Below, piece after piece: positions 1 through 27,910 of a DNA stretch of 64,000 nucleotides; position 1 is the first letter of the stretch, and the number at the start of each line of letters is the position of its first letter. The translations under genes were made by a program, and so were the position numbers. Source of the stretch: a virus; IMG/VR virus record IMGVR_UViG_3300013111_000141, positions 32,761 to 96,760 of that record; one strand, 5' to 3'. The notes beneath the pieces were generated by a model. That model was not told the origin of the DNA, searched no databases, and saw only the letters and a list, made by a program, of their open reading frames with translations.

Positions 1-597
1 ACAATCAAAATATTTTAATAATCCAATATGTCTGAATCCAACAAGTTCTAATGGGTGTCGTGTAACTATATCACAATTATTTTTAAATCTATAAAATGTT
101 GGAGTAAACGAATCAGCAAACTCAGAATCACCCACTCTAGGCGACCCAAATGTATATCCTATAGAATCTTTCCCACCAAACCGTGATGAAGCTAAAGTAC
201 ATAAAGCAGCTCCCAAACTATGACCTGTAAAATATACATTCCTGTGTTTATCTCCGGCCATTGAATAATCTACATAATGTTGAAGCAAATCATCATATAT
301 CAAGTCTAATGCACCTTTAAATCCCCTATGAACACTACCAATACTGTCTGATTCAACCTTTCTAAATTTTATATCTGCCTCAATATCTGACAATTGTGTT
401 GGTTCCGTCCCACGAAATACATATATAATATCTTCATCATCCCATAATCCATAACATTGAGTAGACCCATTATTAAAAAACTTAATATCATATTTCTCTG
501 AATATATTTCTGAGAAATCTACAACATCCAAATAAGCATTCATAGACAATCCAGAAAAAAACATTGCATTTTTATAACTAAATTCCCTATTTAACAT
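1..597 (-). CDS. Class 3 lipase (alpha/beta hydrolase), truncated by the window edge
   Basis: Manual translation from ATG 597 (absent from the ORF track): MLNREFSY...YVFRGTEP...VHRGFKGA...YFTGHSLGAAL...YTFGSPRVGD...DIVTRHP; these are the Lipase_3 motifs, including GxSxG. Confidence 0.9.
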   Translation of the reverse strand, partial: MLNREFSYKNAMFFSGLSMNAYLDVVDFSEIYSEKYDIKFFNNGSTQCYGLWDDEDIIYVFRGTEPTQLSDIEADIKFRKVESDSIGSVHRGFKGALDLIYDDLLQHYVDYSMAGDKHRNVYFTGHSLGAALCTLASSRFGGKDSIGYTFGSPRVGDSEFADSFTPTFYRFKNNCDIVTRHPLELVGFRHIGLLKYFDC

Positions 598-598
598 A

Positions 599-805
599 TC
601 AATCTCCAGAGCAATTAACAGAAATAGAATTTGGTGATACTGCCTTAGCTACTTGTTTCCTAAGTGCAACCCTCCCCCCTTCAGGGATTGAACAATAACG
701 TTCTACTGTATGGGATGCTGCCAATTTTACAGTATCCATCTTAGAACAACCTTGTATAAGTATAATACTTAATATCACTAAACACCACTTAAATAATTTC
801 TTCAT
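599..805 (-). CDS. Small putative lipoprotein
   Basis: Basic N-terminus, hydrophobic stretch and lipobox-like IQGC; two further Cys. Confidence 0.6.
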   Translation of the reverse strand: MKKLFKWCLVILSIILIQGCSKMDTVKLAASHTVERYCSIPEGGRVALRKQVAKAVSPNSISVNCSGD

Positions 806-972
806 TTCCCACTCCTTAATAAGTTTTCAAATCGTTTTTCTTGTTTCACCTTTGACTCCTTCTCAACATTTAATGCCGACATTTCACGGACAATAACCCT
901 ATACCGTAAAGCACATATAAGAATATCCTTATCAATATTTTCAATTGATCGATCAAATTTATTACAATTCAT
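802..972 (-). CDS. Hypothetical protein (56 aa)
   Basis: Manual ORF MNCNKFDRSIEN...RSGK; ATGA overlap with the next gene. Confidence 0.5.
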   Translation of the reverse strand: MNCNKFDRSIENIDKDILICALRYRVIVREMSALNVEKESKVKQEKRFENLLRSGK

Positions 973-991
973 TATATATCTCTTCTTGTTA

Positions 992-1022
992 GAATAATTC
1001 CGCCAAAATTGACGGAATATTC
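992..1022 (-). terminator. Intergenic hairpin (terminator or processing stem)
   Basis: GAATA-TTCCGTCA-ATTT-TGGCGGAA-T-TATTC stem; no clear U-tract. Confidence 0.35.
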
Positions 1023-1034
1023 ATAATAAATATA

Positions 1035-1355
1035 TTATTTAAAATTATATCGGTACTCTACCGCTACATTTTCTGCATGTTGATCAGTACCCTCAAATAA
1101 ATCCCATGGTCCAGACATATTGAATCGATTATACATTAAACCAACTTCATGAACCTTTCCAGTTCCAATATAAGCATTAGTAAAAAGTCGTAACGCGTTA
1201 GTATCTTGTGAACCAGACCAAAAATTACTCATTCCATCTGCATCTTGTGTCCAACGAAATCCAGCATCTTTCATCTGAATTGAAAATGCATCCTCGGCCA
1301 TAGATGTTGTTGTAAACGCAAATAATACTGTAAATAACATTAATATTTTTTTCAT
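1035..1355 (-). CDS. Exported beta-rich protein
   Basis: Probable start ATG 1355 after AGAGGA; signal peptide MKKILMLFTVLFAFTTTSMA; ends VAVEYRYNFK. Confidence 0.6.
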   Translation of the reverse strand: MKKILMLFTVLFAFTTTSMAEDAFSIQMKDAGFRWTQDADGMSNFWSGSQDTNALRLFTNAYIGTGKVHEVGLMYNRFNMSGPWDLFEGTDQHAENVAVEYRYNFK

Positions 1356-1385
1356 ATTTTTTCCTCTTTGTTGTAAAAATGAAAC

Positions 1386-1417
1386 ATAATGTGGATATTT
1401 TCCAACACCCACATTAT
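1386..1417 (-). terminator. Hairpin downstream of the tmRNA coding piece (likely terminator)
   Basis: ATAATGTGGGTGTT-GGAA-AATATCCACATTAT 14-bp stem followed by GTTTCATTTTT. Confidence 0.65.
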
Positions 1418-1418
1418 A

Positions 1419-1915
1419 TATATAAGAGGATTTCTGTTGCCAAGTATCCCCAAACTCCGCATACTTATATACTAAGCTGCAACCGCAAAATTATCATCTG
1501 CATTTATTTTTTTGATTTTTACATCTTTCTTGATGAATAGTCCATATACAATATAATACATTGTCGAATCTGTTCTCCCCCACAAAAATTGTCTAGTCAC
1601 AACCCAAAAGTCCTGCAGAACTTCATGAACGCCACTTGCGGCTAAGGATACCCGGGAGTTTGTTGTCCCGTGTTCACATACGTCCATATATACATTGTAG
1701 AACCCATCATCGCTGGTTTGGTGCTAAGTTAAATGAACCCGTTGGCTCTGGGGGAATTCCCCCTCACCATCTCTCGTACGCTCCATCTATTCTACTAAGT
1801 ATACCGTGTGTCACACATTCCGTATACATTGAATAATATACATCTACACTAAACAATTTATGTGGAAGAGGTGGGAATCGCACCCACGTCCAACATACAT
1901 AAAATATACTTCAAA
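1419..1915 (-). ncRNA. ssrA: Circularly permuted (two-piece) tmRNA: acceptor piece ~1915-1863, intervening segment 1862-1582, coding piece 1581-~1419
   Basis: T-arm/acceptor GGAC-GTGGG-TGCGATT-CCCAC-CTCTTCC-A precedes the 5' end GGGGGAG-AACAGATTCGAC. The acceptor stem pairs with G3.U70 and has discriminator A. Tag (A)ADDNFAVAA* at 1501-1472 follows an A-rich resume context. 3' motif TTGGCAACAGAA. Confidence 0.9.
1582..1862 (-). ncRNA. Unidentified structured RNA within the tmRNA intervening segment
   Basis: Ends pair (AAATTGTTTAGT/ACTAGACAATTT); several internal hairpins; GC-richer than the flanks. Confidence 0.55.
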
Positions 1916-1918
1916 CTA

Positions 1919-2221
1919 TTATGCTTTTAACTTTAAATCTTCCTCCGTTACAATATCTTCATACCCATCATACTCACGAACATAAAACTTTAACCCCTCT
2001 GTAACATATGACAATTTCATATTATCAAACTCATATAAATTATGAGTTGGTTCTGACATCGCCATCACCTGTTTATGAAATGATTTCTCATCCCCATGCA
2101 AAAATTCATAAATTAATTCAGCATCCATTCTAAGTGATTGGGGTTTAATGGCAAATCCACTACCCCAACCAGCATGTATAAGAACCCCTACTTTACCATC
2201 TGCACTATAATATTTACCCAC
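1919..2221 (-). CDS. Hypothetical phage protein
   Basis: 100-aa ORF overlapping the fadJ stop; GKVGVL..GWGSGF...EYDGYE. Confidence 0.65.
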   Translation of the reverse strand: MGKYYSADGKVGVLIHAGWGSGFAIKPQSLRMDAELIYEFLHGDEKSFHKQVMAMSEPTHNLYEFDNMKLSYVTEGLKFYVREYDGYEDIVTEEDLKLKA

Positions 2222-4202
2222 CTACGTTCTCCACTAATTGCGAACCTTGTGAATGATATTGTTTAGTAATTTCTTTGTTTACTTCATCTGAATAATGTAA
2301 TGGTCCACCCCTAAATGGAGCAAATCCAGTACCAAAAATAATACCAGAATCTATAAGGTCAGAAGATTCTACAATACCCTCATCTAAACATAATTTACAC
2401 TCTGAAATAATTTTCCCTATTAACCTTGACTTTATCTCTATTTTAGGATCTGCATAAATCTTATCTACGGGTTTACCTTTATTATATATATAAAACCCCC
2501 TACCAGATTTAATACCCAATTTACCTTTGTCTACTAACTTCTTTAATCTCTTTGGAACAGTAATTCCAAGATCCTCACTTATTATATCCGTAACAAAATA
2601 ACAAACATCAAGTCCTACAGTATCTGCCAATAATAAAGGTCCCATTGGCATACCAAAATCAGTAAAAGAATTGTCAATTTCTTCTTTACTATATCCTTCA
2701 TCTAACATATTAATAGCCTCAATAAGTGTAGGCATTAACACACGATTAACTAAAAATCCTGGACTTGATTTAACTTTTAATGGTAACTTATCAATATGTC
2801 TACAAAATGACATAGACTTCTCTATAACATCCTCTGAAGTAATATCTGAATATACCACTTCAACCAAAGGCATTTTTGCAACTGGATTAAAAAAGTGTAT
2901 ACCAACTAATCTCTCAGGATTTTTCATTTCACTTGATAATACTTCCAACTTGATAGAAGATGTATTAGTGCCCAATATAGCGGTACTTTTCATTTCAGAT
3001 TCTAATTCACTATATAAGTGACGTTTAATATCCGCATTTTCAACAATAGCCTCAATGACTATATCTGCGGAAGATATACCATATCCATTTTTATCAGGAA
3101 TCAACCTATCATACACTTCATTGATTAAATAATCCTTCCCAGAAAATCTTTTTGCATAAAATTTATACGATCTTTTCATTGCGGCAGCTATGGTGTTATC
3201 ATCAATATCCTGTAAAGTCACCTTATATCCCCTTAGAGACGCCCACATTGCAATATCTCCACCCATTGCACCAGCACCTATAACGTGGACATGTTTAAGA
3301 TCTAACTTAGATTTATCACCAGAAGATTTAAGTAAATCCTGTAACTTAAACACTCGTAATAAATTCTTCGCAGTATCTGTCATTGCTAACTTAGAAACTG
3401 ACTCCGCCTCTGCATTCATAAGATGATGCTCATTATATCCATATTTTTCCCATATATCAACTAAAGCATATGGTGCTGGATAGTGTGATTTTTTTACCTC
3501 TTTCCTTAAAGTTCTACGCAATTGCATTGATAATAACCTTCTACCAATACCAGAATTCAATACATAATCTAATTTATCTGGTCTTCTAACTGGTGGACAC
3601 TTTGCAAGTACATCTTCCGCAGATTTAACTAATAAACGTTCAGGAACCGCATAATCAACTAATCCCATCTTTTTTGCTTGATATACTGATAAAGTACGTC
3701 CACTTAACATCATACCCATAGCCTTAATAACACCAAGAACTCTAATAGACCTAACAGAACCACCAAATCCAGGATGTATACCCAACTTAACTTCAGGAAA
3801 TCCGACTCGGATATTAGGTGAATCTAATATAATTCTATAATCACATGATAATGCAAGTTCCAATCCACCACCAAGACACAATCCATTAATTAATGCTAAT
3901 GTAGGAAATTCCATGTCATCAATTAACCACATCACTTCTTGTCCTTTAGTAATGGCTTCATAAGCATCATCATACTCATGAAAATCCTTAAATTCTGTAA
4001 CATCAGCACCAGCAATAAACCCAGTTGATTTATCAGAACAAATAACCATACCATCAGGATTATCAGATTTAACCTCTAATAATACATCTTTTAATTCCGT
4101 TAATACTTCACCAGATAATACATTCATACTACCATAAGAATAATCAAAATGTACCCATGCTATATTGCTAAAATATTTTAATTTGAAATGTTTATAATTC
4201 AT
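2214..4202 (-). CDS. fadJ: Fatty-acid oxidation multifunctional alpha subunit (enoyl-CoA hydratase + 3-hydroxyacyl-CoA dehydrogenase; FadJ/FadB-like)
   Basis: Crotonase domain FIAGAD, GGGLELAL, GFPEVKLGIHPGFGG; HAD domain GAGAMG, EAIVE, NTSS, HFFNP, PGFLVNR, GMPMGP. Confidence 0.93.
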   Translation of the reverse strand: MNYKHFKLKYFSNIAWVHFDYSYGSMNVLSGEVLTELKDVLLEVKSDNPDGMVICSDKSTGFIAGADVTEFKDFHEYDDAYEAITKGQEVMWLIDDMEFPTLALINGLCLGGGLELALSCDYRIILDSPNIRVGFPEVKLGIHPGFGGSVRSIRVLGVIKAMGMMLSGRTLSVYQAKKMGLVDYAVPERLLVKSAEDVLAKCPPVRRPDKLDYVLNSGIGRRLLSMQLRRTLRKEVKKSHYPAPYALVDIWEKYGYNEHHLMNAEAESVSKLAMTDTAKNLLRVFKLQDLLKSSGDKSKLDLKHVHVIGAGAMGGDIAMWASLRGYKVTLQDIDDNTIAAAMKRSYKFYAKRFSGKDYLINEVYDRLIPDKNGYGISSADIVIEAIVENADIKRHLYSELESEMKSTAILGTNTSSIKLEVLSSEMKNPERLVGIHFFNPVAKMPLVEVVYSDITSEDVIEKSMSFCRHIDKLPLKVKSSPGFLVNRVLMPTLIEAINMLDEGYSKEEIDNSFTDFGMPMGPLLLADTVGLDVCYFVTDIISEDLGITVPKRLKKLVDKGKLGIKSGRGFYIYNKGKPVDKIYADPKIEIKSRLIGKIISECKLCLDEGIVESSDLIDSGIIFGTGFAPFRGGPLHYSDEVNKEITKQYHSQGSQLVENVGG

Positions 4203-4205
4203 AAG

Positions 4206-5510
4206 TTATCTCTTTAAATTTTCAACTAATATTGCACCACCTTGCCCATGCCCAATACATAAAGATGCAACCCCATAATGACCACCATTTGATTCTAACG
4301 TCTTAATTAAATGATATACTATCCGTGTTCCAGAAGCACCTACAGGATGACCCATACTAATAGAACCACCATGAACATTTAGTTTTTCATCAGGTATTAA
4401 CCCAAATGGTTCATCCAATCCAAACTCAGATAAACAATAATCCACATCATTCATTGCCCTTGTACAACCAATAACTTGTGATGCAAAAGCTTCATTTAAT
4501 TCCCAACTATCAATATCATCACATCGTAACCCATTTCTCATAACAAGAGGAACTATTGACTGAACTGGACCCAATCCCATCTCTGATGGATCTACTCCAG
4601 CCCACTTAGTATCAATAATTTTTGCAATAGCTTTATCACGTAACCCATACTTATCCAAGGCATCCTCACTTGCCAACAAAACAAATGAAGCACCATCCGT
4701 AATAGGTGAAGAATTACCCGCAGTCACATTACCAAATATTTTATCAAAAACTGGTCTTAATTTCCCTAATTTTTCAATAGTGTTCTTAGATCTAACAGAT
4801 TCGTCTTTATTATAAAAATTCCCATCAGTATCATATATAGTAACAATCTCATCCTCTAATACATTAGTATTTTGTGATATCGACGCTTTCATATGACTGT
4901 TTAATGAATAATCATCCATATCATTTCTAGATATATTAAACTTATATGCCAAATTCTCAGCAGTCTGACCCATTGATAAATTAATAGTTGGATCTTTTAA
5001 TGCACGTAATAAACTAATCACTGGGACTAATAACTTAGGTCTAAACTTAAGTAACACAGACAACTTCTTAGATAATGTCTTAGCTAATGTAAATTCAGAC
5101 AACCACATAGTCATATCATCATTAAATAATAATGGTGCCCTACTCATAGTTTCCGTACCACCAGCAATAATCAAATCGGACTGTCCACAAGATATACTCC
5201 TATATGCCGAATCAATTGACTGCAAACCAGAAGCACAATTTCGTTGTACCGTATATGCCGGTATATTAACATTAAGACCTAATCGTAATGCTAACAATTT
5301 TGCAATATTACACTCATCAGCGTTAGGATTCATACAACCAACAACCAATTCATCCACATCATCATTACTAATATCATTACGAATTAACATAGGTCTAACC
5401 GCCTGAATCGCCAAATCCAATGCCTTAAACTTTCCAGGACTTCCCTTCGCCTTTAAAAAAGGTGTCCTACTACCATCTACAATATATACATCATTTAACT
5501 TGTATTTCAT
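4206..5510 (-). CDS. fadI: 3-ketoacyl-CoA thiolase (FadI/FadA-like)
   Basis: RTPF, NCASG (catalytic Cys), GNSSPITDGA, NEAFA, GHPVGASG, CIGHGQG. Confidence 0.93.
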   Translation of the reverse strand: MKYKLNDVYIVDGSRTPFLKAKGSPGKFKALDLAIQAVRPMLIRNDISNDDVDELVVGCMNPNADECNIAKLLALRLGLNVNIPAYTVQRNCASGLQSIDSAYRSISCGQSDLIIAGGTETMSRAPLLFNDDMTMWLSEFTLAKTLSKKLSVLLKFRPKLLVPVISLLRALKDPTINLSMGQTAENLAYKFNISRNDMDDYSLNSHMKASISQNTNVLEDEIVTIYDTDGNFYNKDESVRSKNTIEKLGKLRPVFDKIFGNVTAGNSSPITDGASFVLLASEDALDKYGLRDKAIAKIIDTKWAGVDPSEMGLGPVQSIVPLVMRNGLRCDDIDSWELNEAFASQVIGCTRAMNDVDYCLSEFGLDEPFGLIPDEKLNVHGGSISMGHPVGASGTRIVYHLIKTLESNGGHYGVASLCIGHGQGGAILVENLKR

Positions 5511-5527
5511 AACTACTATCTCCCTTC

Positions 5528-5698
5528 TTAAGGGTCATCCTTTAAATTCATAAATTTCTTACGTTCCAATAATAACATATAACACCTACCACAATGCCAC
5601 GTGCTATCGTCTTTTAATAATTCTTCAATCAATGTCAAATTCATCTCACTATAACTAATATCATTACATAAACATATTATATTCCTATGTCTATTCAT
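5528..5698 (-). CDS. Bfd-like [2Fe-2S] small protein (56 aa)
   Basis: Manual ORF MNRHRNIICLCNDIS...WHCGRCYM; CxC...CGxC pattern. Confidence 0.55.
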   Translation of the reverse strand: MNRHRNIICLCNDISYSEMNLTLIEELLKDDSTWHCGRCYMLLLERKKFMNLKDDP

Positions 5699-5711
5699 AT
5701 TTTGATATATC

Positions 5712-5900
5712 CTATATCGGTATGTTATCCTTAACTAAAATAAGTCCTGTTGCAATAATTATCCATATCGGTATTAATACAAATAAAATACCTAACAATA
5801 TTTTATTTGTAATATCTTCAGCTTTCACCGACATAGACATAACGTTACATAAAATCACAAATGAAAGTACACATAACCAAACTATTTCAAACCACCCCAT
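5712..5900 (-). CDS. Small membrane protein
   Basis: Two hydrophobic segments. Confidence 0.55.
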   Translation of the reverse strand: MGWFEIVWLCVLSFVILCNVMSMSVKAEDITNKILLGILFVLIPIWIIIATGLILVKDNIPI

Positions 5901-5909: not shown

Positions 5910-6929
<1,020 letters not shown>

Positions 6930-6941
6930 TAAATCACCGCA

Positions 6942-8873
6942 TTATTTGGTTTCGGGTTTACCCTCTGGAACAGGATCCACTGGTTCTTCAACCACCTCTG
7001 CATTGACAACTTCGGCATCTACAGTCTCGGATGTTGTAGTGGAATCATCTCCAACATCTTCCCCTGTTGGTTCTGGTTTTTGTAATTTTGCAGACAACTC
7101 TACTAATGATTGTACTTTAGTATTAATATCATCTAAATCTTCACCAGACATAGACTCTTTTAATTCTGCAACACTATTTACAATATCAGTTCTTTCTTCA
7201 TCAGTAATTACAATTTCCTCATCTGATAATTTACCCTCAACATCATTAATAAATCCTTCAGCCATATTTCTAGCACCAACTAATGCAGTATACTTCTCAT
7301 CTGCCTCTTTATGTTCTTCACCCTCTTTAATCATACGTTCTACATCCTCATCAGATAATCCAGATGAAGATTTAATTTCAATGGACTGTTCCTTACCAGT
7401 ATTTTTATCTTTGGCAGAAACATGCATAATACCATTAGCATCAATATTGAATTCAACTTCAATTTGTGGTGTTCCGCGTGGTCCTGGTTGAATTTCTGTC
7501 AAATCAAACCTACCTAAAGAATTGTTACCAGAAGCAACTGAACGTTCACCTTGCAGAACATGAATAGTAACTGCCGGTTGATTATCTTCGGCAGTTGAAA
7601 ATACTTCACTTTTTTTCGTTGGAATAGTAGTATTCTTTTCAATTAATGTGGTCATTACACCACCCATAGTTTCAATACCTAATGATAATGGAGTTACATC
7701 AAGCAATAATACATTATCAATACCACCAGATAACACACCACCCTGTGTAGCAGCACCAAGAGCAACTGACTCATCAGGATTTACATCCTTTCTCGGTTCA
7801 ATACCAAAAATAGATTTTACCATTTCTTGAACTTTAGGCATTCTAGTTTGTCCACCAACTAAAATAACATCATCAACCTTAGTAACATCTGCATCCTTTA
7901 AAGCAGTAACACATGGGGTTTTTGTACGTTCAATTAATTCAGATACCATCTTCTCCAATTTAGAACGTGAAATCTTAACATTTAAATGTTTAGGACCAGT
8001 TGCATCCGCAGTAATATATGGTAAATTTACTTCAGTTTCTTGAGTCGATGACAACTCAATTTTACACTTCTCTGCCGATTCTTTTAATCGTTGTAATGCA
8101 ATAGGGTCATTATGAAGATCCACCCCGTTTTCTTTTTTAAATTCATCACAAAGATAATCAATAAGTCGTAAATCAAAATCCTCACCACCTAAAAATGTAT
8201 CACCATTAGTAGACAATACTTCAAAGGAATATTCTCCATCCACATTAGACATCTCAATAATAGAAACATCAAAAGTACCACCACCAAGATCATAAACAGC
8301 AACTACCTTATCATCTTTAACATCACCTTTATCTAAACCATAAGATAAAGCTGCAGCTGTAGGTTCATTGATAATTCGCATAACATCTAGTCCAGCAATC
8401 TTACCAGCATCCTTTGTTGCTTGTCTTTGTGAATCATTAAAATAAGCAGGAACAGTAATAACTGCCTGTGTCACTTCAGAACCCAAATATGACTCCGCAT
8501 CTTTTTTTAATTTCATTAAAATTTTTGATGAAATTTCTGGGGGAGATAATAACTCACCACCAGATTTTACCCACGCATCACCATTATCCGCCTCTACAAT
8601 GTCATAAGGCACCATGGATATGTCCTTTTGAACTGCATCATCTTTAAACTTTCTGCCAATTAATCTCTTAACCGCAAACAATGTATCTTTTGGATTAGTC
8701 ACCGATTGTCTCTTAGCTGACTGTCCTACTAATATTTCCGAATCCGAATGTGAAACTATAGATGGTGTCGTCCTAGAACCTTCACCATTTTCAATTACTA
8801 CTGCCTTACCATTCTCTAACACAGCTGCGCATGAATTAGTAGTACCCAAATCAATACCAATAATATTACCCAT
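6942..8873 (-). CDS. dnaK: Chaperone DnaK (Hsp70)
   Basis: [53 protein letters not shown]. Confidence 0.97.
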
Positions 8874-15626: not shown

Positions 15627-16232
15627 TTACAAAATAATATCCCTCCAATCCTTATCATCAATATGTTCAATACTTCTTAATGATATTGGACCAAAATCAG
15701 TCCTACTAATTAAATTATATGATTCAAATACAAATGCCCTATTATTTACCCTAGAAAATCCACTTATTCCGGTTTTACCAAACTTAGGTTTACCCAACTT
15801 TTCTTTAACTCCAACCTTACCAAATCCTGGCCAACTGTTCTCACACATATTAGTAGATACTGCATAATAATCAGACTCCTTTTCTGCATACGTTATTGCA
15901 TCCTGTTCAAAATCCTTTCCAAGTTCAATAAGATCTTTTAATAACTTACCAGAATCCTTAAGATCAACAACATAATATGATGCCTCTGATACCTCTTTAC
16001 CACCATTCTCAATCCAAGAACCCTTTATTTTAGTAATACCATATCCACGTTTTAGTAACTTAGAACGTAAAATACTATTCTTACCCATATTCTGTTTCTT
16101 TGTATACCTAACCCCATCACCACATTCAGTCATATCTCTAAATGCCGTAATAGTACCAGTATCGTGTTCTGTCCACGCCGTCCGAATACGATTTAATGTC
16201 GATTCCGATAGAATCTTTGTTATACTGCTCAT
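15627..16232 (-). CDS. Conserved phage protein, possibly a head-internal protein
   Basis: ILSESTLNRI, TITAFR, GYG...GSWIE, LGKDFEQDAI. Confidence 0.6.
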   Translation of the reverse strand: MSSITKILSESTLNRIRTAWTEHDTGTITAFRDMTECGDGVRYTKKQNMGKNSILRSKLLKRGYGITKIKGSWIENGGKEVSEASYYVVDLKDSGKLLKDLIELGKDFEQDAITYAEKESDYYAVSTNMCENSWPGFGKVGVKEKLGKPKFGKTGISGFSRVNNRAFVFESYNLISRTDFGPISLRSIEHIDDKDWRDIIL

Positions 16233-17447: not shown

Positions 17448-18728
17448 TTATAAAAAACTATCCAAATCAGTCACAGGTTCAACCGAATCTATTCTTGATG
17501 TTGCAATCTCAAAATACTCTTGTTCTTTCTCGATACCGATAAAATCAAAACCCTCATCTTTTGCAGCCATTCCAGTTGAACCACTTCCCATAAATGGGTC
17601 AAGAACAGTTCCACCTTTTGGTGTTACGAGTCTGCATAGGTATTTCATTAACTCTACAGGTTTAACCGTTGGATGTATATTCTTTCGTTCTGTTACAAAT
17701 CTTCCAGTAACATCATTATCTATCTTTGATTTATCCATTTCATGTGGATCTCGTCTACCAGACATACTTGATGTCTTTTTGATAGGCATTTCATCACAAC
17801 CCTGATTTCTTTCTTTCTTAGACACCTTTGGCGAATAGAAATATCTTGCAGCTGAACCATCATCTCCATATTCTCTACCGGATGGGGATCCTGTTGATTT
17901 ATCCCAAATACCACCAGATTTTGAACCTTCACCTTTGTATTTACCAGCTTTAGTATATGGAAATACCTCTTTCACAACATCAGAACCATCATGCATTACA
18001 TTTGATGGGAATCTACCAATTGAAGTGGATTCAATATCAGACGGTTTCCAATTATCATCATGCATTACACCTAATGAAGACATTCCCCTATGTGTTCTTT
18101 CTTCATTTCGTACTCTACAACCATCAATATTAATACCACCAGTTCCATGTTTCAATACATTTGTGACAATAGTCTTTTCTGATAATGGTTTCCTAGCCAT
18201 TACAATCGGTTCGTGTGCCGGTTTTAATGCAGTTCCCCAACCTTCCCATTCTGAATTACCTCTATCTACAACAACCTCTGTAGTTGCATTTGTCTCGTTT
18301 GGTCTATAACCCTGTTCTTTTCTAGTTTTAGAAATACTTACCTGATATCCACAACTTTTAGTTCCAACTACTTCTCTTTCATTGCCCTGTTTTGCATCTA
18401 CCGATTTTCCGATGTTGTGCGACTTTGGAAACCCAGAACCATAGAGCCACATAATCTGATCTCGTATCTCAAACCCTGCGTCCTCAATAGCAACTGCCAT
18501 TCTATGATAGGTTCTAGAACCAGAAAATGCAAGTAAATGACCACCGGGTTTCAATAACTTTAATGCAAGTTCCCACGTTTCTTTAGAAAATGCTATACCA
18601 GTATCATCCCATTGTTTCCCCATAAATCCTAACTCATATGGAGGATCCGTAACAATTGATTCAACTTGCACACCATCATCTATCATCTGTTTCATTCTAT
18701 CAATACAATCATCACAATACAGTATCAT
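17448..18728 (-). CDS. Amino (N6A/N4C) DNA methyltransferase, beta class
   Basis: TDPPY, HPTVKP, DPFMGSGST; start moved to ATG 18728. Confidence 0.9.
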   Translation of the reverse strand: MILYCDDCIDRMKQMIDDGVQVESIVTDPPYELGFMGKQWDDTGIAFSKETWELALKLLKPGGHLLAFSGSRTYHRMAVAIEDAGFEIRDQIMWLYGSGFPKSHNIGKSVDAKQGNEREVVGTKSCGYQVSISKTRKEQGYRPNETNATTEVVVDRGNSEWEGWGTALKPAHEPIVMARKPLSEKTIVTNVLKHGTGGINIDGCRVRNEERTHRGMSSLGVMHDDNWKPSDIESTSIGRFPSNVMHDGSDVVKEVFPYTKAGKYKGEGSKSGGIWDKSTGSPSGREYGDDGSAARYFYSPKVSKKERNQGCDEMPIKKTSSMSGRRDPHEMDKSKIDNDVTGRFVTERKNIHPTVKPVELMKYLCRLVTPKGGTVLDPFMGSGSTGMAAKDEGFDFIGIEKEQEYFEIATSRIDSVEPVTDLDSFL

Positions 18729-18990
18729 CACCACCATCCTTACTGGGGAAAAAATCATTTACTTGATGACCTTTAAATTTAATAGTATCAGGTTTTTCAA
18801 AACACGACACATACACACGCCCCAATTCTTCCATTCTCAACTCAAATAATTTAGATACTGCAACTACATCTTCACGTTCTGAACTATCCTTCATTTTTTT
18901 AATGATTAATTCTAAATCATCAGAAAATCCCCACACCCTCATTATTAATTGATCTAACTCATACAACTTATCTATTTTATCTTTCTTCAT
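18712..18990 (-). CDS. Hypothetical protein
   Basis: ORF overlapping both neighbours. Confidence 0.55.
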   Translation of the reverse strand: MKKDKIDKLYELDQLIMRVWGFSDDLELIIKKMKDSSEREDVVAVSKLFELRMEELGRVYVSCFEKPDTIKFKGHQVNDFFPSKDGGDDTVL

Positions 18991-20345: not shown

Positions 20346-20374
20346 ATAATAACACAAAAACAACTATAAGTCAA
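20346..20374 (-). promoter_or_regulatory. Sigma70-type early promoter
   Basis: TTGACT-17 nt-TATTAT with extended TG. Confidence 0.65.
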
Positions 20375-22646
20375 GTCTTTTTTCAATAAAAATTGAAATT
20401 CTTTCCCATATTAAATCCGAATTATTATACAATATACCATGACAATCTGAACCAATAATATGCATTTCCTTATCAGAGGAAACCACATTATTATATATAT
20501 AATCAGCACCCCTAACTGAAACCAATGAATCATCTTTAGAATATATAATCAACATAGGAACTGTTACATTAGATAATGTACTCTTAATACTTTTAACCAA
20601 TCTTCCTACCTCATATATACTAAACGTTGGTATTATCCAATAATTAATATGTTCATTCTCAGGGATATTCTTAAAAAATGTTTTAACTCCATTACATGAT
20701 AATAATGTACTAACAACCTTATTAATACCGTTAATTATAGGTACAAACTTAATTCTAGTATCATCATAAAAAATAGGAGCAGATATAACAACTATAGATT
20801 TAACCCTAGAATCATTTATAAACTCTTTACGTAATGCAATTGCACCACCAGTAGAAAACCCAACAATCACAATATTTTTAGACAACATAGAAGCCATGTC
20901 AAAATAACTATAAACCGATTTTATCCAATCATTATGGTTATATTGCATCAACTCATATGGTGACGTACCATGACCAACGATTCTAGCACCAACAACAATA
21001 TAACCAATTCCACACAAATAATCACCAAACCCCCTAACTTCTGCCGGTGATGACAATAATCCATGAATTAACAATATTACCACACCATTAGACTTTTTAG
21101 GAAATAAAATAAAAGGATTATCATCAGAAGTATTAATTTCAGAAAATTTAGAATTATATTTATCATTACTATATAATTTCTTATCATATGTTAACGATAG
21201 TTTCTGATCATCCAATAAATGTAATGCTATATCTTTATTAGTAACCTTATGCATATCACTAATAACACTCTTAACAACATTACCAACCAAAGAAACTGGT
21301 TGTATCTCATTATAATATACAACTAATAAATTCTCAACCCTAACTGTTAATGGATCAACATTAAAATTAAACTTACCAGATAAATATATAGTATTACTCC
21401 CTATGACCAATACACCTTGTTTCTCAAGAGACTCAATATATTTTAATACATCTACATTATTACCACTTAATATATCACCATAAAGATGTGGAGTTAATAA
21501 CCCACTATGTAATCTAATTCCAGACTTCTGTTGTAATGTCTTTAACACCAAATATAATTCTTTATGTAATTGATCCTTGGAAATAGATACTATATTTTGT
21601 TTAAATCTATACATCAATAAGCAAGATATTAAATGACTTAAATTAATAGTAACATAAGAATAAATACTCTTAGTGTAATAGTCACGTGTAAGATTAGAAC
21701 ACTTTATAAGATGCTTATGCAACATATCGACTTTCCAAGACTTATCAACATCACCAATAGAAAACACATCATCTAAGGATTTTATAGAATCAGTAAATGT
21801 TTCAGTTAACGACGACTTCCATGAATGCCAAATACCGGAGGTAGATATCACTTTGCTCATAACAACATCCATATCAGTATCTTTAGTAATTAAATTACCC
21901 TCAACTAACAACTCTTCTGTTTGTCGTAATGTGAGTCCATTAGAAATATATTCAACTGCCTTCAATAAAACATTATCAGTTACACGCAAAGGATAAAACG
22001 TTATATTAGATGCAACTATATTAGTAGGTTTTGATACTGCATCCAATAACTCATCCAAACTATTAAAATCTAATTCCTTTTGCCACATTAATAATCTATC
22101 CATGTCCATATCTCTATGAGCATTACGAACTATAAACTTAAACACCTCCAACCCATGTGACAAAACAGCTGCCCCAGTATGTTGTTTCCGTACTTTCATA
22201 GTTGTTTGACATAACATATTATAATGTCCTTCATCATCAACAACCCTATGATCCTTTACCATTCCACCTTCAGGAAAAATAACAACTTTATGTCCGTGTA
22301 ATATTTGTTTCGCTAAAATAGGAAATAATCTGGGGTGATTATGAGGGACAACTCCTAACTTACTTAAATAGGATGATAATATATTATCATTTTTAAAAAA
22401 TTCACCAGACCCAACAGAATAACAATAACTACCATTTTCTTCATGTATCAAATATTGAGGGATAAATGTTTCTATACGAGAAAAATGATTAAATACAAAT
22501 ATACTACCATCGTCAATATTAATATCAGAATGAATATTAATATTAATTCTTAATAATCGTTTCAGAATTCTAAATGAACGTATAGATAATCTATACATAC
22601 GTTTATCTATATCAATCCAATCACGATTATACTTAAACCCACTCAT
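20364..22646 (-). CDS. Glycerolipid acyltransferase (PlsB/PlsC-like) fused to an alpha/beta hydrolase
   Basis: N-terminal FVFNHFSRIE and VIFPEGG; C-terminal LLIHG, GHG, GFSTGG (nucleophile), DDSLV, HG. Confidence 0.8.
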   Translation of the reverse strand: MSGFKYNRDWIDIDKRMYRLSIRSFRILKRLLRININIHSDINIDDGSIFVFNHFSRIETFIPQYLIHEENGSYCYSVGSGEFFKNDNILSSYLSKLGVVPHNHPRLFPILAKQILHGHKVVIFPEGGMVKDHRVVDDEGHYNMLCQTTMKVRKQHTGAAVLSHGLEVFKFIVRNAHRDMDMDRLLMWQKELDFNSLDELLDAVSKPTNIVASNITFYPLRVTDNVLLKAVEYISNGLTLRQTEELLVEGNLITKDTDMDVVMSKVISTSGIWHSWKSSLTETFTDSIKSLDDVFSIGDVDKSWKVDMLHKHLIKCSNLTRDYYTKSIYSYVTINLSHLISCLLMYRFKQNIVSISKDQLHKELYLVLKTLQQKSGIRLHSGLLTPHLYGDILSGNNVDVLKYIESLEKQGVLVIGSNTIYLSGKFNFNVDPLTVRVENLLVVYYNEIQPVSLVGNVVKSVISDMHKVTNKDIALHLLDDQKLSLTYDKKLYSNDKYNSKFSEINTSDDNPFILFPKKSNGVVILLIHGLLSSPAEVRGFGDYLCGIGYIVVGARIVGHGTSPYELMQYNHNDWIKSVYSYFDMASMLSKNIVIVGFSTGGAIALRKEFINDSRVKSIVVISAPIFYDDTRIKFVPIINGINKVVSTLLSCNGVKTFFKNIPENEHINYWIIPTFSIYEVGRLVKSIKSTLSNVTVPMLIIYSKDDSLVSVRGADYIYNNVVSSDKEMHIIGSDCHGILYNNSDLIWERISIFIEKRLDL

Positions 22647-23650
22647 GTTATTAAAAACTCATCAAGCGTGACAGCATTCTTACGTTCAGTCTCAGTATTA
22701 ACATTCTCTTTAGTTATCTTAAAAAACTGTTCTGATGCTTCAAATCCAATATACTTTCTACCAAGTTGTGATGCTCTAACTAATGTAGTGCCTGTGCCAG
22801 AAAAGGGGTCAAGAACAACACCACCTACTGGACAACCCGCAATTATAGGTTTATCAATTAATTCTGAATTATATGAAGCAAGGTGTGAAGAACGATTACC
22901 CTTTATCGTGATATTCCAAAAATCAGCAACATCACCCGGGTTCTTTCCTTTTGGATTTAATGAAGTATTACCACTATTGTATTCATCAATATCACGTCCA
23001 CCATTCTTTGGTCTAGAAAGACTTTGAGCAGAACTCACCCCAATACCAGTAGAATACTTATTTTCATTAGTACCACGTAAGGCTCTTTTAATAGAAGTAG
23101 TCATATTCTCATCACGAATAGAATCAAGGTCAAAATAATAACCTTTAGGTTTCTTCGTCATTAAAAATATATATTCGTGTTTCTTTGAGAATCTATCACG
23201 AACTGATTCCGGCATACCATTTCTCTTTGCCCAGATTATATCATTACGAATAGTCCAACCACGATCATAACAACCAATAGCAAATCTATGAGGAATCAAT
23301 AATAAACTTTTAGATCTCAAATCAGATGGTTGTTTTATCACCATACCACCCAAATATTCACCAGTTCTACTTCCGGTATATCCCATATTAAGTCCACCAG
23401 ATTTAGTAGAATATGTGTCGCCAAGATTGATCCACACAGTACCAGTATCTTTTAAAACTCTATATATCTCATCCATCATTTCCCATAAATGTTCAAGATA
23501 TTCTTGAAATGTGGGTTCTAATCCCCACTGCCCATCAAACCCATAGTCTCTTAATTGCCAATATGGCGGTGACGTAATGACACAATCAATAGATGCATCA
23601 TCTAACTTTTTGAAACCTTCCATGATGTCACAATTATATATTTTATCCAA
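22643..23650 (-). CDS. N4-cytosine-type DNA methyltransferase, beta class
   Basis: TSPPYW, DIIWAK, DPFSGTGTT; probable start TTG 23650 after GGAGGG (the track start lies inside the promoter). Confidence 0.88.
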   Translation of the reverse strand: MDKIYNCDIMEGFKKLDDASIDCVITSPPYWQLRDYGFDGQWGLEPTFQEYLEHLWEMMDEIYRVLKDTGTVWINLGDTYSTKSGGLNMGYTGSRTGEYLGGMVIKQPSDLRSKSLLLIPHRFAIGCYDRGWTIRNDIIWAKRNGMPESVRDRFSKKHEYIFLMTKKPKGYYFDLDSIRDENMTTSIKRALRGTNENKYSTGIGVSSAQSLSRPKNGGRDIDEYNSGNTSLNPKGKNPGDVADFWNITIKGNRSSHLASYNSELIDKPIIAGCPVGGVVLDPFSGTGTTLVRASQLGRKYIGFEASEQFFKITKENVNTETERKNAVTLDEFLIT

Positions 23651-23673
23651 ATCAAACCCTCCACTATATTCAT

Positions 23674-23702
23674 AGTATACCACACCCCAACTTAATTGTC
23701 AA
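23674..23702 (-). promoter_or_regulatory. Sigma70-type early promoter
   Basis: TTGACA-17 nt-TATACT with extended TG. Confidence 0.75.
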
Positions 23703-23710
23703 GGTGTTTA

Positions 23711-24355
23711 TTAATTTTTTTCCAATGCTAATTGAAACGAAGGTCTGACTATACAACGGTCAACATACGATTTAAGATGTGGGAAGTCATGTAAAAGTTC
23801 TGGGAACCAATTCAATGTAGATGATACCATTATATCAACAACAGAAAATTCATGTCCTATCATATATGGACGTTGAACCATCATTGGATTATTACCATTC
23901 ATAGAATTGTCTATAACTACTAATATTTTTTTATATCGTTCTAAAGAATATTCAACAACCGACTGTCTACGTTTTTCTTTAGGCAACAACTTACTATGTA
24001 AAAATATATCCACCAACGGATACTCCATAGTAGAAGTAACATAAAACATCCACTTCAAATACTCAGTCCGATACAAACTAGACACGTCAGGAGACAACCC
24101 CGATTCAGGATTCATATCACACAAATACATACAAATAGCACCAGCCTCCCATATAACATTATTATTATACTTTAATGTCGGTACGGATGCATTTGGATTC
24201 AATGTCAAATAATCTCTATCTGTTTTACCATCACCAAATATATTGATTGGTGTTAACTGATACTCAATACCTAATTCTTCTAATAACCATAAAGGTCTAA
24301 ATGACCTCGTATCAGTACAATGATACAACTCAATAATATCGTTACTCATATTCAC
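23711..24355 (-). CDS. Glutathione S-transferase family protein
   Basis: TRSFRPLWLLEELG, LNPNASVPTL, EAGAICMYL, FSVVDI, RPSFQ. Confidence 0.9.
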   Translation of the reverse strand: MNMSNDIIELYHCTDTRSFRPLWLLEELGIEYQLTPINIFGDGKTDRDYLTLNPNASVPTLKYNNNVIWEAGAICMYLCDMNPESGLSPDVSSLYRTEYLKWMFYVTSTMEYPLVDIFLHSKLLPKEKRRQSVVEYSLERYKKILVVIDNSMNGNNPMMVQRPYMIGHEFSVVDIMVSSTLNWFPELLHDFPHLKSYVDRCIVRPSFQLALEKN

Positions 24356-24357
24356 TC

Positions 24358-24675
24358 CTACAGATTAGTTGGGTTCACTGAGAAATATAATGCAAATGTC
24401 TTTACCGTATCTGGGTATACATGTTCATTATATTCTAATACCTTTCCTTCCTCTAAAAATTCACGTTTTAATAAACACTTATCCACGTGATTTGGTAAAT
24501 TGTCAAAATTGTCATATAAATGTTTCATCACCTCATAATGTCTTATCTCTGAATATATATTATTACTATCTGGATGATGAGTAAACATATATGAATACAT
24601 TAAATAATATCCTATTTCCTTTTCTAATTTATATTTATCAGACTCCATATACTCATAATACTTATCAATCTTCAT
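24358..24675 (-). CDS. Hypothetical protein, weakly resembling stand-alone NAD-ligase domain Ia-like phage proteins
   Basis: YLMYSYMF...IYSE..HYEVMKHLYDNFD..H. Confidence 0.45.
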   Translation of the reverse strand: MKIDKYYEYMESDKYKLEKEIGYYLMYSYMFTHHPDSNNIYSEIRHYEVMKHLYDNFDNLPNHVDKCLLKREFLEEGKVLEYNEHVYPDTVKTFALYFSVNPTNL

Positions 24676-24676
24676 A

Positions 24677-25381
24677 TTATTTATTTCGTCTATTACCTAT
24701 AGAATCACCATAAGCTACTGCCAATGGTAACAACTTAGCTAAAGGTAAACTAATCTTTAAAACATTAAGTTTCATATCTCTATCTAACAATATAGCAGAT
24801 AAAAACCTATGGTGTCCATCAATAATGCGATTATCCGATGATACTATTAATACTTTGGAATTTAATAATTTTATAGTCCCATTAACACCATTCTTAGCTA
24901 TAGTACCAAGTCCCTTATCAAAATATATTTGATCCTGAATTGGAGTCAAATCTTTCGCTGAAATTTTATCACGTGTAACTTTTACCACATCATCCCGTTC
25001 ATTACCATCATTCTTTTTTAACCCAGCCTTTAAAAACTTATCAGCCTTATCACCTGATAATCCTTCTGGAAATGGATTTGACGGAACTGTATCTTTAGAA
25101 AATGGTTTTATTATATCCAATTTTCCCTTTGACAATCTCTTTTGAAATTTATCAATATCTTTAGATGTTATAACGGGCATATCCTTTCTCTTAGTATGAC
25201 CTTTATATGATAGTTTCTGAGCCAAAACATAATTCTTATCAAAATCTGGAATATCTTTATCTAGTGTTGGTAGTTTAGATAACGCATATTCCCTTGCATC
25301 TTCTAAGGACGTAGTAACAACTTCAAGTTTACCAGCCGCAGCACCACCATTTTCCATTAAATAACTCTTAAATGTCTTCAT
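24677..25381 (-). CDS. ParB/Srx-like domain protein with capsid-targeting-like N-terminus
   Basis: MKTFKSYLME start (ATGA overlap); LTPIQDQIY...VSSDNRIIDGHHRF. Confidence 0.65.
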   Translation of the reverse strand: MKTFKSYLMENGGAAAGKLEVVTTSLEDAREYALSKLPTLDKDIPDFDKNYVLAQKLSYKGHTKRKDMPVITSKDIDKFQKRLSKGKLDIIKPFSKDTVPSNPFPEGLSGDKADKFLKAGLKKNDGNERDDVVKVTRDKISAKDLTPIQDQIYFDKGLGTIAKNGVNGTIKLLNSKVLIVSSDNRIIDGHHRFLSAILLDRDMKLNVLKISLPLAKLLPLAVAYGDSIGNRRNK

Positions 25382-26595
25382 TTCTCCCAACCTTTTATTA
25401 TATCTTTTGAAAAATTATTTGCTGAAAATTCCATTCGGTTTACCAATTTAACAGCATTATCATCACGATCAATTGCAACAAATCCCTCTGAACCAGATAC
25501 TTTAAATCCATTCTTAGTTCTTACAAAGGTGGATATATCAGACACACTCTCCATTTTATCTATTAAAATCTCTTTAGCATCAACTAAATGATTTTGTAAT
25601 TCAAACATCAATCTTAAATTCTTTTTATTAGAATCCGAAAAAAAACTTAAAACATCTTCTCTTGATTTAGACTTTTTAGCTTTACCTTTATCCGACTTCA
25701 ATTTGTCAATATCTTTTTGATACTTATCTGAAATATATTTAATAAGTTCATCTGTATGTTTTCTAGTATTTGTAATCTTCTCTTGTGACCTAACTTTAGT
25801 ATTATTAAACGTATTAATCAACTGATTAATAACTGAATTGGTAGAAACATCATTTAATGTTGTTGCAGATATTTTTCTAAATATCTTACCAGCATCAGAT
25901 AAATGTGATGTAACTATATCAGTCTCAGATTTAGTCATAGTAGCAGTACCAGACAAATCAGTAAGATCAGCAGTTCTCATCCATACACTTGAAGTCTTTT
26001 TAAAATCACGAATACTAATATTAAATGATGCAGACATATTCTCAAAAGAATCACCAGTATATTTTGTATGCCAAACAACTCCTATCTTTGATTGTAATAT
26101 AGAACCAGCCTGTGATGTTGGTACAGCGTATACTATCGTATTAGGATGAAAGGTAACATAAGACTCACCATCAATTGTTTCATTCTTAAGATCAGAATTA
26201 GTATACATAATATCACCTTGCACGACACCCTTAATACCAAGTTTCTTTAATTCAGTATATGCAATCTTTAACTTACTAGACAAATCACCAGAAGTATCAT
26301 CATCTATATCACTATGTGACTTGTATACTTTTGGATTCTTATTAAATATACCCTTCTTCGCAACAAAAAACTGTCCATCTGTCGGGTCAATACCAGCAAA
26401 CACAGCAGGTGCGCCATCCCACTTAACAGTCACTGAATGTGAAGTATTAGAATTACCAGACAACATATCTCTCAATGACCTTAAAGCGTTAATGGCACCA
26501 CGTGTACCATTAACGCCACCATCAAGGACAAGATCCTCAATATGAGTCATATGAGTATTTTTAGCTTCTGTTACATATTCTTGAAATGTTAACAT
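25378..26595 (-). CDS. Ligase-like nucleotidyltransferase (DUF6267-like), capsid-targeting-like N-terminus
   Basis: MLTFQEYVTE; KNTHMTHIED, VKWDGAP, QGD, EGFV, VKLVNRMEFS. Confidence 0.7.
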   Translation of the reverse strand: MLTFQEYVTEAKNTHMTHIEDLVLDGGVNGTRGAINALRSLRDMLSGNSNTSHSVTVKWDGAPAVFAGIDPTDGQFFVAKKGIFNKNPKVYKSHSDIDDDTSGDLSSKLKIAYTELKKLGIKGVVQGDIMYTNSDLKNETIDGESYVTFHPNTIVYAVPTSQAGSILQSKIGVVWHTKYTGDSFENMSASFNISIRDFKKTSSVWMRTADLTDLSGTATMTKSETDIVTSHLSDAGKIFRKISATTLNDVSTNSVINQLINTFNNTKVRSQEKITNTRKHTDELIKYISDKYQKDIDKLKSDKGKAKKSKSREDVLSFFSDSNKKNLRLMFELQNHLVDAKEILIDKMESVSDISTFVRTKNGFKVSGSEGFVAIDRDDNAVKLVNRMEFSANNFSKDIIKGWEK

Positions 26596-26621
26596 ATATT
26601 ACAACTCTAATTGTAAAATTA

Positions 26622-26629
26622 TATTTATA
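26622..26629 (-). promoter_or_regulatory. T4-type late promoter
   Basis: TATAAATA in the intergenic gap. Confidence 0.7.
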
Positions 26630-26632
26630 ATA

Positions 26633-27910
26633 TTAAAACTGTTCCTCTTCAGTAGAACCGTCCATAGCAGTAACAGATGATTTACCACCTTGTATAACAT
26701 TTGTAACAGAATCAAAATAACCAGCACCAACTTCCTCTTGATGCCTTGCAAATGTATATCCATCTTTAACCGAAGCAAACTCAGGTTCTTGGACACCCTC
26801 CACATAAGCAGTCATACCACGTTCAACATAATCCTTTGACAACTCAAACATAGAATGCCACATATCATGAATACCAGCCAACGTAATAAATTGCCATTTG
26901 AACCCCATCTCCCCCAATTTTTGTTGATAGTGTCTTATTTCTTCGTCACTTAAATTCTTCTTCCAGTTGAATGACGGAGAGCAATTATACGCCAACAATT
27001 TTCCAGGGTACTGTTGATGGATTGCCGTAGCGAACTTCTGTGCCTCTTCTAAGTTCGGGACCGCAGTTTCGCACCATAACATATCAGCATACGCCGCATA
27101 AGATAATCCCCTTGATATCGCCTGATCTATTCCGCAGTTAACTCGGAAAAACCCTTCCTCAGTTCTCTCCCCTGTGACGAATTCCTTGTCACGGACATCA
27201 ATATCAGATGTTAACAAAGTTGCTGCATTAGCGTCGGTTCTTGCGATAATAACGATAGGCACTCCCATAACATCAGATGCCAATCTGGCAGAAATTAATT
27301 TCTGAATCGCCTCTTGTGTTGGTACTAACACCTTACCACCCATATGTCCACATTTCTTAGCAGATGATAATTGATCTTCTAAATGAATACCCGATACACC
27401 ACACTCTATCATAGATTTAGTCAACTCATAAGAATTCAACACCCCGCCAAACCCAGCCTCAGCATCAGCGATAATTGGAGCAAAGTAATCAATATCATTT
27501 CTTCCCTTATTCCATTGAATTTCATCTGCTCTACGGAATGTATTATTAATACGTCTTACCATCATTGGTACTGAATTATATGCATATAATGATTGATCTG
27601 GATACATTGTTTCTGACGAATTACCATCAGCAGCAACTTGCCAACCTGATAAATATATAACCTTAATACCAGCCTTAACTTGTTGCATAGCCTGTCCAGC
27701 AGTTATAGCCCCCATAGAATTAACATATCCATCTTCGTTAATCAATTTCCAAAGTTTTTTAGAACCCACGGTAGACACTGTATATTCTTCATCAAACGAA
27801 CCGCTTAACCTAATAACATCTTCTGCCGAATAATCACGTTTGACATTCAACCAACGTTCATTCTCACTCCAATCTTTCTCTAAAGTTCGTACTCTACCCA
27901 ATTGTTCCAT
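26633..27910 (-). CDS. aceA: Isocitrate lyase
   Basis: [66 protein letters not shown]. Confidence 0.97.

Follow-up and report, generated by a model that had tools for sequence, protein, structure and literature searches.

Enzyme genes of the window and its contig

The window analyzed here is 64,000 nucleotides of DNA, bases 32761-96760 of a single 96,760-bp IMG/VR virus record (IMGVR_UViG_3300013111_000141, hereafter G000). Enzymes of fatty acid breakdown and of the glyoxylate bypass are encoded in it among the genes of a T4-like phage. They are a class-3 lipase, a FadJ-type multifunctional enzyme, a FadI-type thiolase, an acyltransferase-hydrolase fusion and an isocitrate lyase (ICL). An acyl-CoA dehydrogenase (FadE) and a malyl-CoA lyase (Mcl) are encoded upstream of the window on the same contig. 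A first-pass annotation had described the five window genes as co-oriented and interleaved with phage genes; all five are present, intact and on the minus (phage) strand.

G000 is 54% complete according to CheckV, which gives a genome of about 180 kb. The isolates most similar in gp23 are Melnitz, a phage of OM43 (60% identity), Pelagibacter phage HTVC008M (58%) and cyanomyophages (57%), so the source is an uncultured marine T4-like phage. All open reading frames (ORFs) of any size in the window are on the minus strand, the GC content is about 0.30, the GC skew is strongly negative throughout, and no compositional break was seen along the window. The right half holds a T4-type core (gp23, scaffold, gp20 portal, sheath, TerL, PolB, UvsX, UvsW, a gp41-like helicase and primase), and the left half holds both subunits of ribonucleotide reductase (RNR), ThyX, dihydrofolate reductase (DHFR), dUTPase and RNase H. 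The metabolic genes are thus interleaved with phage genes as described: they are co-oriented with T4-like core genes, which flank them on both sides.

The gene at 2214-4202 (minus strand) encodes a 662-aa enoyl-CoA hydratase/3-hydroxyacyl-CoA dehydrogenase of the FadJ/FadB type with the Pfam domains ECH, 3HCDH_N and 3HCDH. Along its whole length it can be aligned with E. coli FadJ (8bnu), and it retains the glutamate pair of the hydratase (GGGLE, PEV), the NAD motif GxGxxG, the histidine of HFFNP, the glutamate of VEV and the asparagine of VNR. Its scores fall under the NCBIfam equivalog cut-offs for FadJ (493 versus 869 bits) and FadB (457 versus 870). Because of the FadJ score it is classified as a diverged member of the family, not FadJ proper. 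Three bp upstream of it is the gene (4206-5510, minus strand) for a 434-aa 3-ketoacyl-CoA thiolase resembling FadI and the trifunctional-enzyme beta subunit (Thiolase_N and Thiolase_C). The thiolase keeps its Cys-His-Cys set (in NCASG, GHP and CIG) as well as NEAF. It clears PRK08170 (607 versus 593 bits) but not the FadI equivalog (311 versus 560), and among its top solved structures the beta subunit of the mitochondrial trifunctional enzyme is the one whose alignment spans the whole protein.

A 717-aa acyl-CoA dehydrogenase of the FadE type is encoded 16.4 kb upstream of the window (genome 14210-16363). Its four ACAD domains include the bacterial ACDH_C, and its identity to a fragment of E. 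coli FadE is 53%; the protein exceeds PRK09463 (905 versus 600 bits) and falls below the FadE_coli exception model (846 versus 1300). The motif EG(T/A)N carries the catalytic glutamate in the medium-chain and very-long-chain acyl-CoA dehydrogenases, and EGAN (TVEGANILTR) is retained in five phage variants. By sequence, the phage thus encodes all three functions that a round of beta-oxidation needs, in FadE, FadJ and the FadI-type thiolase. The 729-aa ORF adjoining FadE was considered as a missing pathway enzyme and rejected, as it is a peptidase of phrog_459.

The gene for the 425-aa ICL (26633-27910, minus strand) begins 21 nt past that for the RNR large subunit. The enzyme surpasses the NCBIfam equivalog NF011645 (737 versus 562 bits), aligns over its full length with solved ICLs (3lg3 and 1igw, E 2e-189), keeps the active-site loop KKCGH and is 64.6% identical to the Salmonella enzyme by tblastn. 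About 30 kb upstream of the window (genome 1691-2701) lies an HpcH-family L-malyl-CoA/beta-methylmalyl-CoA lyase, assigned by structure matches. It is full-length to the solved Mcl 5ugr (E 3e-100) and to Rhodobacter Mcl1 4l9y (E 3e-83), with CitE-like entries at 1e-32 or weaker. The sole NCBIfam Mcl model is haloarchaeal and gives 131 versus 500 bits; RipC and CitE also score under their cut-offs. A search for malate synthase (PF01274) across G000 and five related contigs (G001-G005) returned only sub-threshold matches, all inside Mcl.

The glyoxylate shunt has a genuine ICL but not its canonical form, as malate synthase was not found and Mcl is present in its place. Acyl-CoA dehydrogenase, acyl-CoA synthetase and malate synthase had all been placed outside the window; the first lies on the same contig, whereas the other two were not found.

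The start of the window truncates the lipase gene, and 1-597 (minus strand) encodes the N-terminal 199 of 260 aa; the gene is whole on the contig (L003:16576-17358). The lipase matches Pfam Lipase_3 (E 6e-20, 72 bits versus a threshold of 22) and phrog_21992, an esterase/lipase family. The serine of GHSLG and the aspartate of NCDIV align with those of fungal lipases, and the histidine was assigned by reading to NDHSS near the C-terminus, beyond the window edge. About 45 nt separate the gene from that of a thiamine pyrophosphate (TPP) enzyme, which is followed by phosphoribosyl pyrophosphate (PRPP) synthase.

The fusion (20364-22646, minus strand; 760 aa) joins an acyltransferase like glycerol-3-phosphate acyltransferase (GPAT)/PlsB to an alpha/beta hydrolase like monoacylglycerol lipase, as judged from Pfam, an AlphaFold (AF2) model and an alignment. 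The Pfam Acyltransferase score is just sub-threshold (22.4 versus 23). The two parts of the AF2 model (pLDDT 90.3) have separate structural counterparts: human GPAT1 for residues 1-465 (Z 19.2, rmsd 4.4, 335 residues aligned) and bacterial monoacylglycerol lipases for residues 486-760 (7e04, Z 31.5, 240 residues aligned). Relatives form 349 clusters among 1.84 billion representatives, and because most of these are 720-790 aa long the whole two-part protein is a conserved architecture. In a 66-sequence alignment the phage protein holds every invariant position (FNHFxRFET, FPEGG, the HG oxyanion pair, GFSTGG, Asp706 and His736), and the hydrolase triad Ser598/Asp706/His736 is conserved. The acyltransferase motif is HX4E, not the canonical HX4D, and is invariant across the family; the N-terminal half is accordingly modeled as a non-canonical member with the GPAT family fold.

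Relatives, selection and phylogeny

The same phage type, with FadJ and ICL at 93-99% protein identity, is present on more than ten IMG/VR contigs from other metagenomes, including contigs of 115 kb and 55 kb. G001, the contig of 115 kb, shares with G000 a collinear stretch of 78 kb in which the nucleotide identity is 77-97%. Because G001 comes from another metagenome and shares this order, a chimeric assembly, one of the concerns raised beforehand, is excluded. G001 extends 37 kb further upstream and encodes there malate dehydrogenase (MDH; Ldh/Mdh family, L107:13768-14745, minus strand), the phosphoenolpyruvate (PEP) synthase PpsA (PPDK_N and PEP-utilizers domains, L107:9045-11435, minus strand), FtsH, gp32 and gp59; the MDH, PpsA and FtsH genes lie just past the start of the window's contig.

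Two other phage lineages carry the set. Lineage B is represented by G002 (61 kb), whose PolB, UvsX and gp41 are 43%, 56% and 55% identical to those of the window's lineage. Its genes are all co-oriented in the order FtsH-PpsA-ICL, Mcl-PRPP synthase-lipase, FadJ-FadI and FadE-RNR, with other genes between these groups. PpsA adjoins ICL there and is 85-87% identical, and the lipase ortholog, 61% identical, has PRPP synthase and Mcl as neighbors. In lineage C (gp23 53% identical) FadI-FadJ is located between UvsW and recombination genes, accompanied by the TPP enzyme and alanine dehydrogenase, and a 12-kb contig of the same metagenome (L112) holds ICL, Mcl, FadE and PurN consecutively. FadI and FadJ are adjacent in every relative showing both, at differing genomic places. 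The slot behind the RNR large subunit is occupied by ICL in the window's lineage and by FadE in lineage B. FadE, FadI-FadJ, ICL and Mcl therefore co-occur in three phage lineages, the outcome that had been sought as a check. A search of genome contigs with FadJ found relatives only at ≤36% identity. Two large ORFs lie inside the lineage B module, one between FadJ and the lipase (L111:5186-6802, plus strand, 538 aa) and one between Mcl and ICL (L111:11776-13917, plus strand, 713 aa); neither has a Pfam match, and both are candidates for unrecognised steps.

Another T4-like group (L063, L074, L076, L088 and L089) has its own ICL clade, 55-59% identical and located beside tail/baseplate genes; in L074, L076 and L089 a distant class-3 lipase homolog (29% identical) is next to ICL. 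Among 50,697 GenBank phage records ICL was found in phage C48C1 only, and the lipase gave one weak match. FadJ, Mcl and FadE-type matches in these records were confined to bacterial-named or bacterial-annotated records or to low identity, and were taken as contamination or unrelated paralogs; FadI was likewise absent from GenBank phages. In PHROGs, FadJ, the thiolase, ICL, Mcl, MDH and the fusion are all without a family.

Nei-Gojobori comparisons of G000 with G001 gave ratios of nonsynonymous to synonymous change (dN/dS) of 0.025 for ICL, 0.09 for FadI, 0.12 for FadE, 0.20 for FadJ, 0.22 for the fusion, 0.23 for Mcl and 0.25 for the lipase. Values for the core genes UvsX and RNR are 0.10 and 0.12, and comparisons with lineages B and C are similar, so that purifying selection acts on all genes of the module. 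The GC content at third codon positions (GC3) of the metabolic genes is 0.16-0.23 versus 0.13-0.24 in core genes; that of ICL is somewhat higher (0.31).

Quick FastTree phylogenies of the top hits only place FadJ, ICL and Mcl in phage-specific clades. The FadJ tree, built from the 120 best database hits plus phage sequences, has one phage clade of 25 rows (SH 97), sister to 103 gammaproteobacterial-type proteins. Eight ICLs of the window type form a clade (SH 100) nested in a gammaproteobacterial set of 124 ICLs, with Thiotrichales, Methylococcales and Ca. Thioglobus among its members, and the second T4-like phage clade and the long branch of C48C1 are placed elsewhere. The Mcl clade has ten phage members (SH 100), and its nearest cellular relatives, 65-68% identical, are from Methylococcales and Nitrosomonas. 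The trees indicate old, phage-maintained genes; trees of top hits do not resolve the donors.

The enzymes are intact, phage-encoded and conserved as a set. Host-type metabolic genes are flanked by phage genes in an order that is reproducible across assemblies, the pattern of auxiliary metabolic genes. This evidence indicates that FadE, FadJ, FadI, ICL and Mcl make up a genuine, conserved metabolic module of the phage.

The T4 late-promoter motif TATAAATA is found ahead of the sheath, gp23, scaffold and other structural genes, of the gene for a DUF6267 protein and of Hsp20, and ahead of no lipid gene. Because the lipid genes lack this motif and ICL follows the RNR large subunit by 21 nt, the arrangement suggests that they are expressed early or in the middle of infection, as other auxiliary genes are. 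Scanning for sigma-70 promoters gave 49 sites where shuffled sequence predicts 52.8, no improvement on chance. The DUF6267 gene (phrog_455; 25378-26595, minus strand) stands directly behind TATAAATA, immediately downstream of ICL.

The 32.8 kb upstream of the window also encode alanine dehydrogenase (L002:12492-13601), which scores above its equivalog cut-off, a tryptophanase-like beta-eliminating lyase (684 bits, L003:7698-9056), PurN, the aspartate decarboxylase PanD of the beta-alanine step of CoA synthesis (L003:7175-7696), dihydroorotate dehydrogenase (DHODH), inorganic pyrophosphatase (L003:11953-12438), an FTR1-family iron permease (L003:12608-13249), PRPP synthase and the TPP-dependent enzyme mentioned above, a 2-keto-acid decarboxylase like those of indolepyruvate and phenylpyruvate (L003:14801-16531); genes with coordinates are on the minus strand. 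The lyase, alanine dehydrogenase and TPP enzyme may form a branch from amino acids to pyruvate. A chaperone and protease set on the minus strand (5910-8873 in the window, L002:5808-6260 and L107:7224-9035) includes DnaK (819 bits), DnaJ and Hsp20, and FtsH is also present in G001 and in lineages B and C. DnaJ is just 59% identical between G000 and G001, with neighbors above 93%, which indicates mosaic exchange. The window further encodes, on the minus strand, a glutathione S-transferase (23711-24355), a SAM-lyase-family protein (15627-16232) and two N6/N4 DNA methylases (17448-18758 and 22643-23683), and more methylases are found upstream. Between the genes for the lipase and FadJ (1472-1920, minus strand) is a tmRNA of the permuted, two-piece kind (Rfam RF04321, 89.9 bits versus a gathering threshold of 47); ARAGORN made no call there. 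This RNA could aid host identification.

Proposed pathway and alternatives

On balance we favor the reading that marine T4-like phages carry a conserved module leading from fatty acid breakdown to acetyl-CoA and into a carbon-conserving glyoxylate bypass during infection. In this way host lipid would probably become a source of energy and C4 building blocks for the phage. The lipase, joined in one lineage by the monoacylglycerol-lipase-like domain, would free fatty acids from host lipid, and host FadD would convert them to acyl-CoA. FadE, FadJ and FadI would then yield acetyl-CoA together with reduced cofactors for ATP, and ICL would cleave isocitrate to succinate and glyoxylate. Mcl would condense glyoxylate with acetyl-CoA to malyl-CoA, from which a host thioesterase or CoA-transferase would release malate. 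Through MDH and PpsA this carbon could reach oxaloacetate and PEP and continue to the PRPP synthase, DHODH, PurN, RNR and ThyX of the phage. We infer the coupling of ICL to Mcl in place of malate synthase, the lipid source, and a host contribution of FadD and malyl-CoA thioesterase. That lipid of carbon-starved hosts may fuel virion and dNTP synthesis, as the first-pass annotation suggested, is likewise a conjecture. A degradative direction of flux is favored because FadE is, to our knowledge, not a physiological enoyl-CoA reductase.

Several observations weigh against this reading. The lipid and glyoxylate genes of the window's genome are spread over about 60 kb and form no single operon. FadD, searched as the AMP-binding family PF00501, was absent from G000 and from G001-G005, records that are 11-64% complete; for the phage type of the window this covers about 134 kb. 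No FadL homolog turned up, FadL and FadR not having been searched for specifically. No malyl-CoA thioesterase was recognised, the working direction of Mcl is not fixed by its sequence, and the substrate of the lipase cannot be read from its sequence, a point that also favors a role at the envelope. C48C1, a complete genome, has ICL and is without FadJ, Mcl and this lipase. Its ICL was probably gained independently because it forms a separate long branch in the tree, and T4-like phages appear to have gained ICL at least twice. As it stands alone in C48C1, ICL is useful without phage beta-oxidation. The first-pass claim of one pathway is therefore supported in part: the recurrence of the set in three lineages speaks for it, and the separate value of ICL tempers it.

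A more far-reaching form of the favored reading is possible, though we lean against it. The genes would then be a portable lipid-to-C4 pipeline with a bypass of ICL and malyl-CoA lyase in place of malate synthase, carried in differing genomic slots, and with MDH, PEP synthase, PRPP synthase and the nucleotide genes the phage could convert host membrane or storage lipid to nucleotides almost alone. As far as a literature search found, the pairing of ICL with malyl-CoA lyase is undescribed for any virus. More speculatively, the host might be a membrane-rich methane or sulfur oxidizer whose internal membranes serve as fuel, because the nearest cellular FadJ, Mcl and ICL are from marine Methylococcales- or Thiotrichales-like Gammaproteobacteria. 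As to the host, cellular homologs point to marine Gammaproteobacteria, and the structural genes resemble those of phages of OM43 and SAR11. The phage DnaK has a best identity of ≤68% among 401 Pseudomonadota genomes.

It is rather unlikely that the lipase and the fusion act on the envelope, in membrane remodeling, lysis or phage exclusion, and that only the CoA-level enzymes make up a pathway. Lipolytic lysis enzymes (LysB) are known from mycobacteriophages, and the fusion belongs to a broad family of proteins of about 770 aa predicted to combine a GPAT-like part with a hydrolase. The fusion was seen in the window's lineage only and not in the examined parts of lineages B and C. For this reason, and because its GPAT-like half is of a synthetic enzyme type, its role in catabolism is doubtful; the identity given to it earlier agrees with the AF2 model, its place in the pathway does not hold up as well, and we regard it as an accessory gene. 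The lipase fits the envelope less well. It is taken to be intracellular, its N-terminus, read by eye, has no obvious signal peptide, no late promoter precedes it, and its neighbors are PRPP synthase and Mcl in lineage B and the TPP enzyme and PRPP synthase in the window's genome.

The absence of any lipid coupling, with ICL and Mcl serving glyoxylate and C2 metabolism alone and FadE, FadJ and FadI adding energy only, is improbable but retains real weight because ICL stands alone in C48C1. ICL and Mcl could form an anaplerotic bypass by which CO2 loss and an excess of NADH are avoided, for instance when iron is limiting, or they could supply glyoxylate for glycine, one-carbon units and purines. 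In serine-cycle methylotrophs Mcl cleaves malyl-CoA, and the closest cellular Mcl sequences of the phage are those of Methylococcales and Nitrosomonas. The phage also has PurN, ThyX, DHFR and the FTR1 iron permease, a second T4-like ICL clade exists besides C48C1, and ICL has been reported alone in viruses assigned to Pelagibacter (PMC10721903). Against two independent modules, lineage C has ICL, Mcl and FadE side by side and the full set is present in three lineages. Cleavage by Mcl also requires a source of malyl-CoA (malate thiokinase or CoA-transferase), and none was recognised among the scanned proteins.

An artefact, whether a chimera or cellular DNA joined to a phage contig, is scarcely credible: the contig is incomplete and metagenome-derived and many "phage" database matches for these enzymes are bacterial contamination, but the same gene order is present on more than ten independent contigs from other metagenomes, co-oriented T4-like core genes flank the enzymes on both sides, their GC3 is core-like and composition is unbroken.

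Auxiliary genes of phages usually patch single bottleneck steps, and here a near-whole catabolic route is found in one tailed phage. If the favored reading is true, cells infected in dark or nutrient-poor parts of the ocean would oxidize their own lipid under viral control, altering what is released on lysis. ICL with Mcl would represent a naturally occurring alternative to the shunt through malate synthase, and the reliance of virocells on fatty acid degradation would become a directly testable model.

Comparison with known systems

The phage enzymes resemble E. coli FadE with FadB/FadA or FadJ/FadI in having the same three functions, domains and catalytic residues and adjacent genes for the thiolase and the multifunctional enzyme. 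Unlike the E. coli genes, those of the phage are viral, its FadJ is shortened (662 aa) and sub-equivalog, and the loci are separate and vary between lineages. A true ICL is shared with the canonical glyoxylate shunt (AceA with AceB or GlcB); in the phage, where no malate synthase was found, L-malyl-CoA lyase stands in its stead.

Mcl together with a malyl-CoA thioesterase constitutes an "apparent malate synthase", as with Mcl1 and Mcl2 of Rhodobacter, and MclA of Methylobacterium functions in the serine and ethylmalonyl-CoA pathways. The phage Mcl aligns over its full length with 5ugr and 4l9y. It differs from the Rhodobacter and Methylobacterium systems in being paired with ICL, not with the ethylmalonyl-CoA pathway or serine cycle, and no Mcl2-type thioesterase was recognised.

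Among viruses, C48C1 (OQ984149, Kyanoviridae) is also T4-like, marine and ICL-bearing, and its ICL is 52% identical to that of the window. Giant viruses of eukaryotes carry genes for beta-oxidation and the tricarboxylic acid cycle (PMC9270025). Fatty acid oxidation is virus-encoded in both cases; those viruses are Nucleocytoviricota, whereas the phage described here is tailed and T4-like, with a genome of about 180 kb. In Pseudoalteromonas virocells at low phosphate, host proteins of fatty acid degradation are enriched (PMC11170926).

The literature search found nothing published on malyl-CoA lyase in a phage or on a linked phage set of FadE, FadJ and FadI. Virome reads of fadB, fadL and aceA/aceB led to the proposal that fatty acid oxidation and the glyoxylate shunt operate in infection (Hurwitz et al. 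2013, PMC4053976), and ICL has been reported on viral contigs (PMC10721903). The idea and some of the genes are the same, but those are observations of reads or of single genes. Earlier virome evidence of this kind consisted of unlinked reads, for which contamination is possible. In the phage contigs described here, which are long, the enzymes are linked and recur as a set, to which FadE, the thiolase and Mcl are added, and the genes are reproducible, under purifying selection, clonable and assayable.

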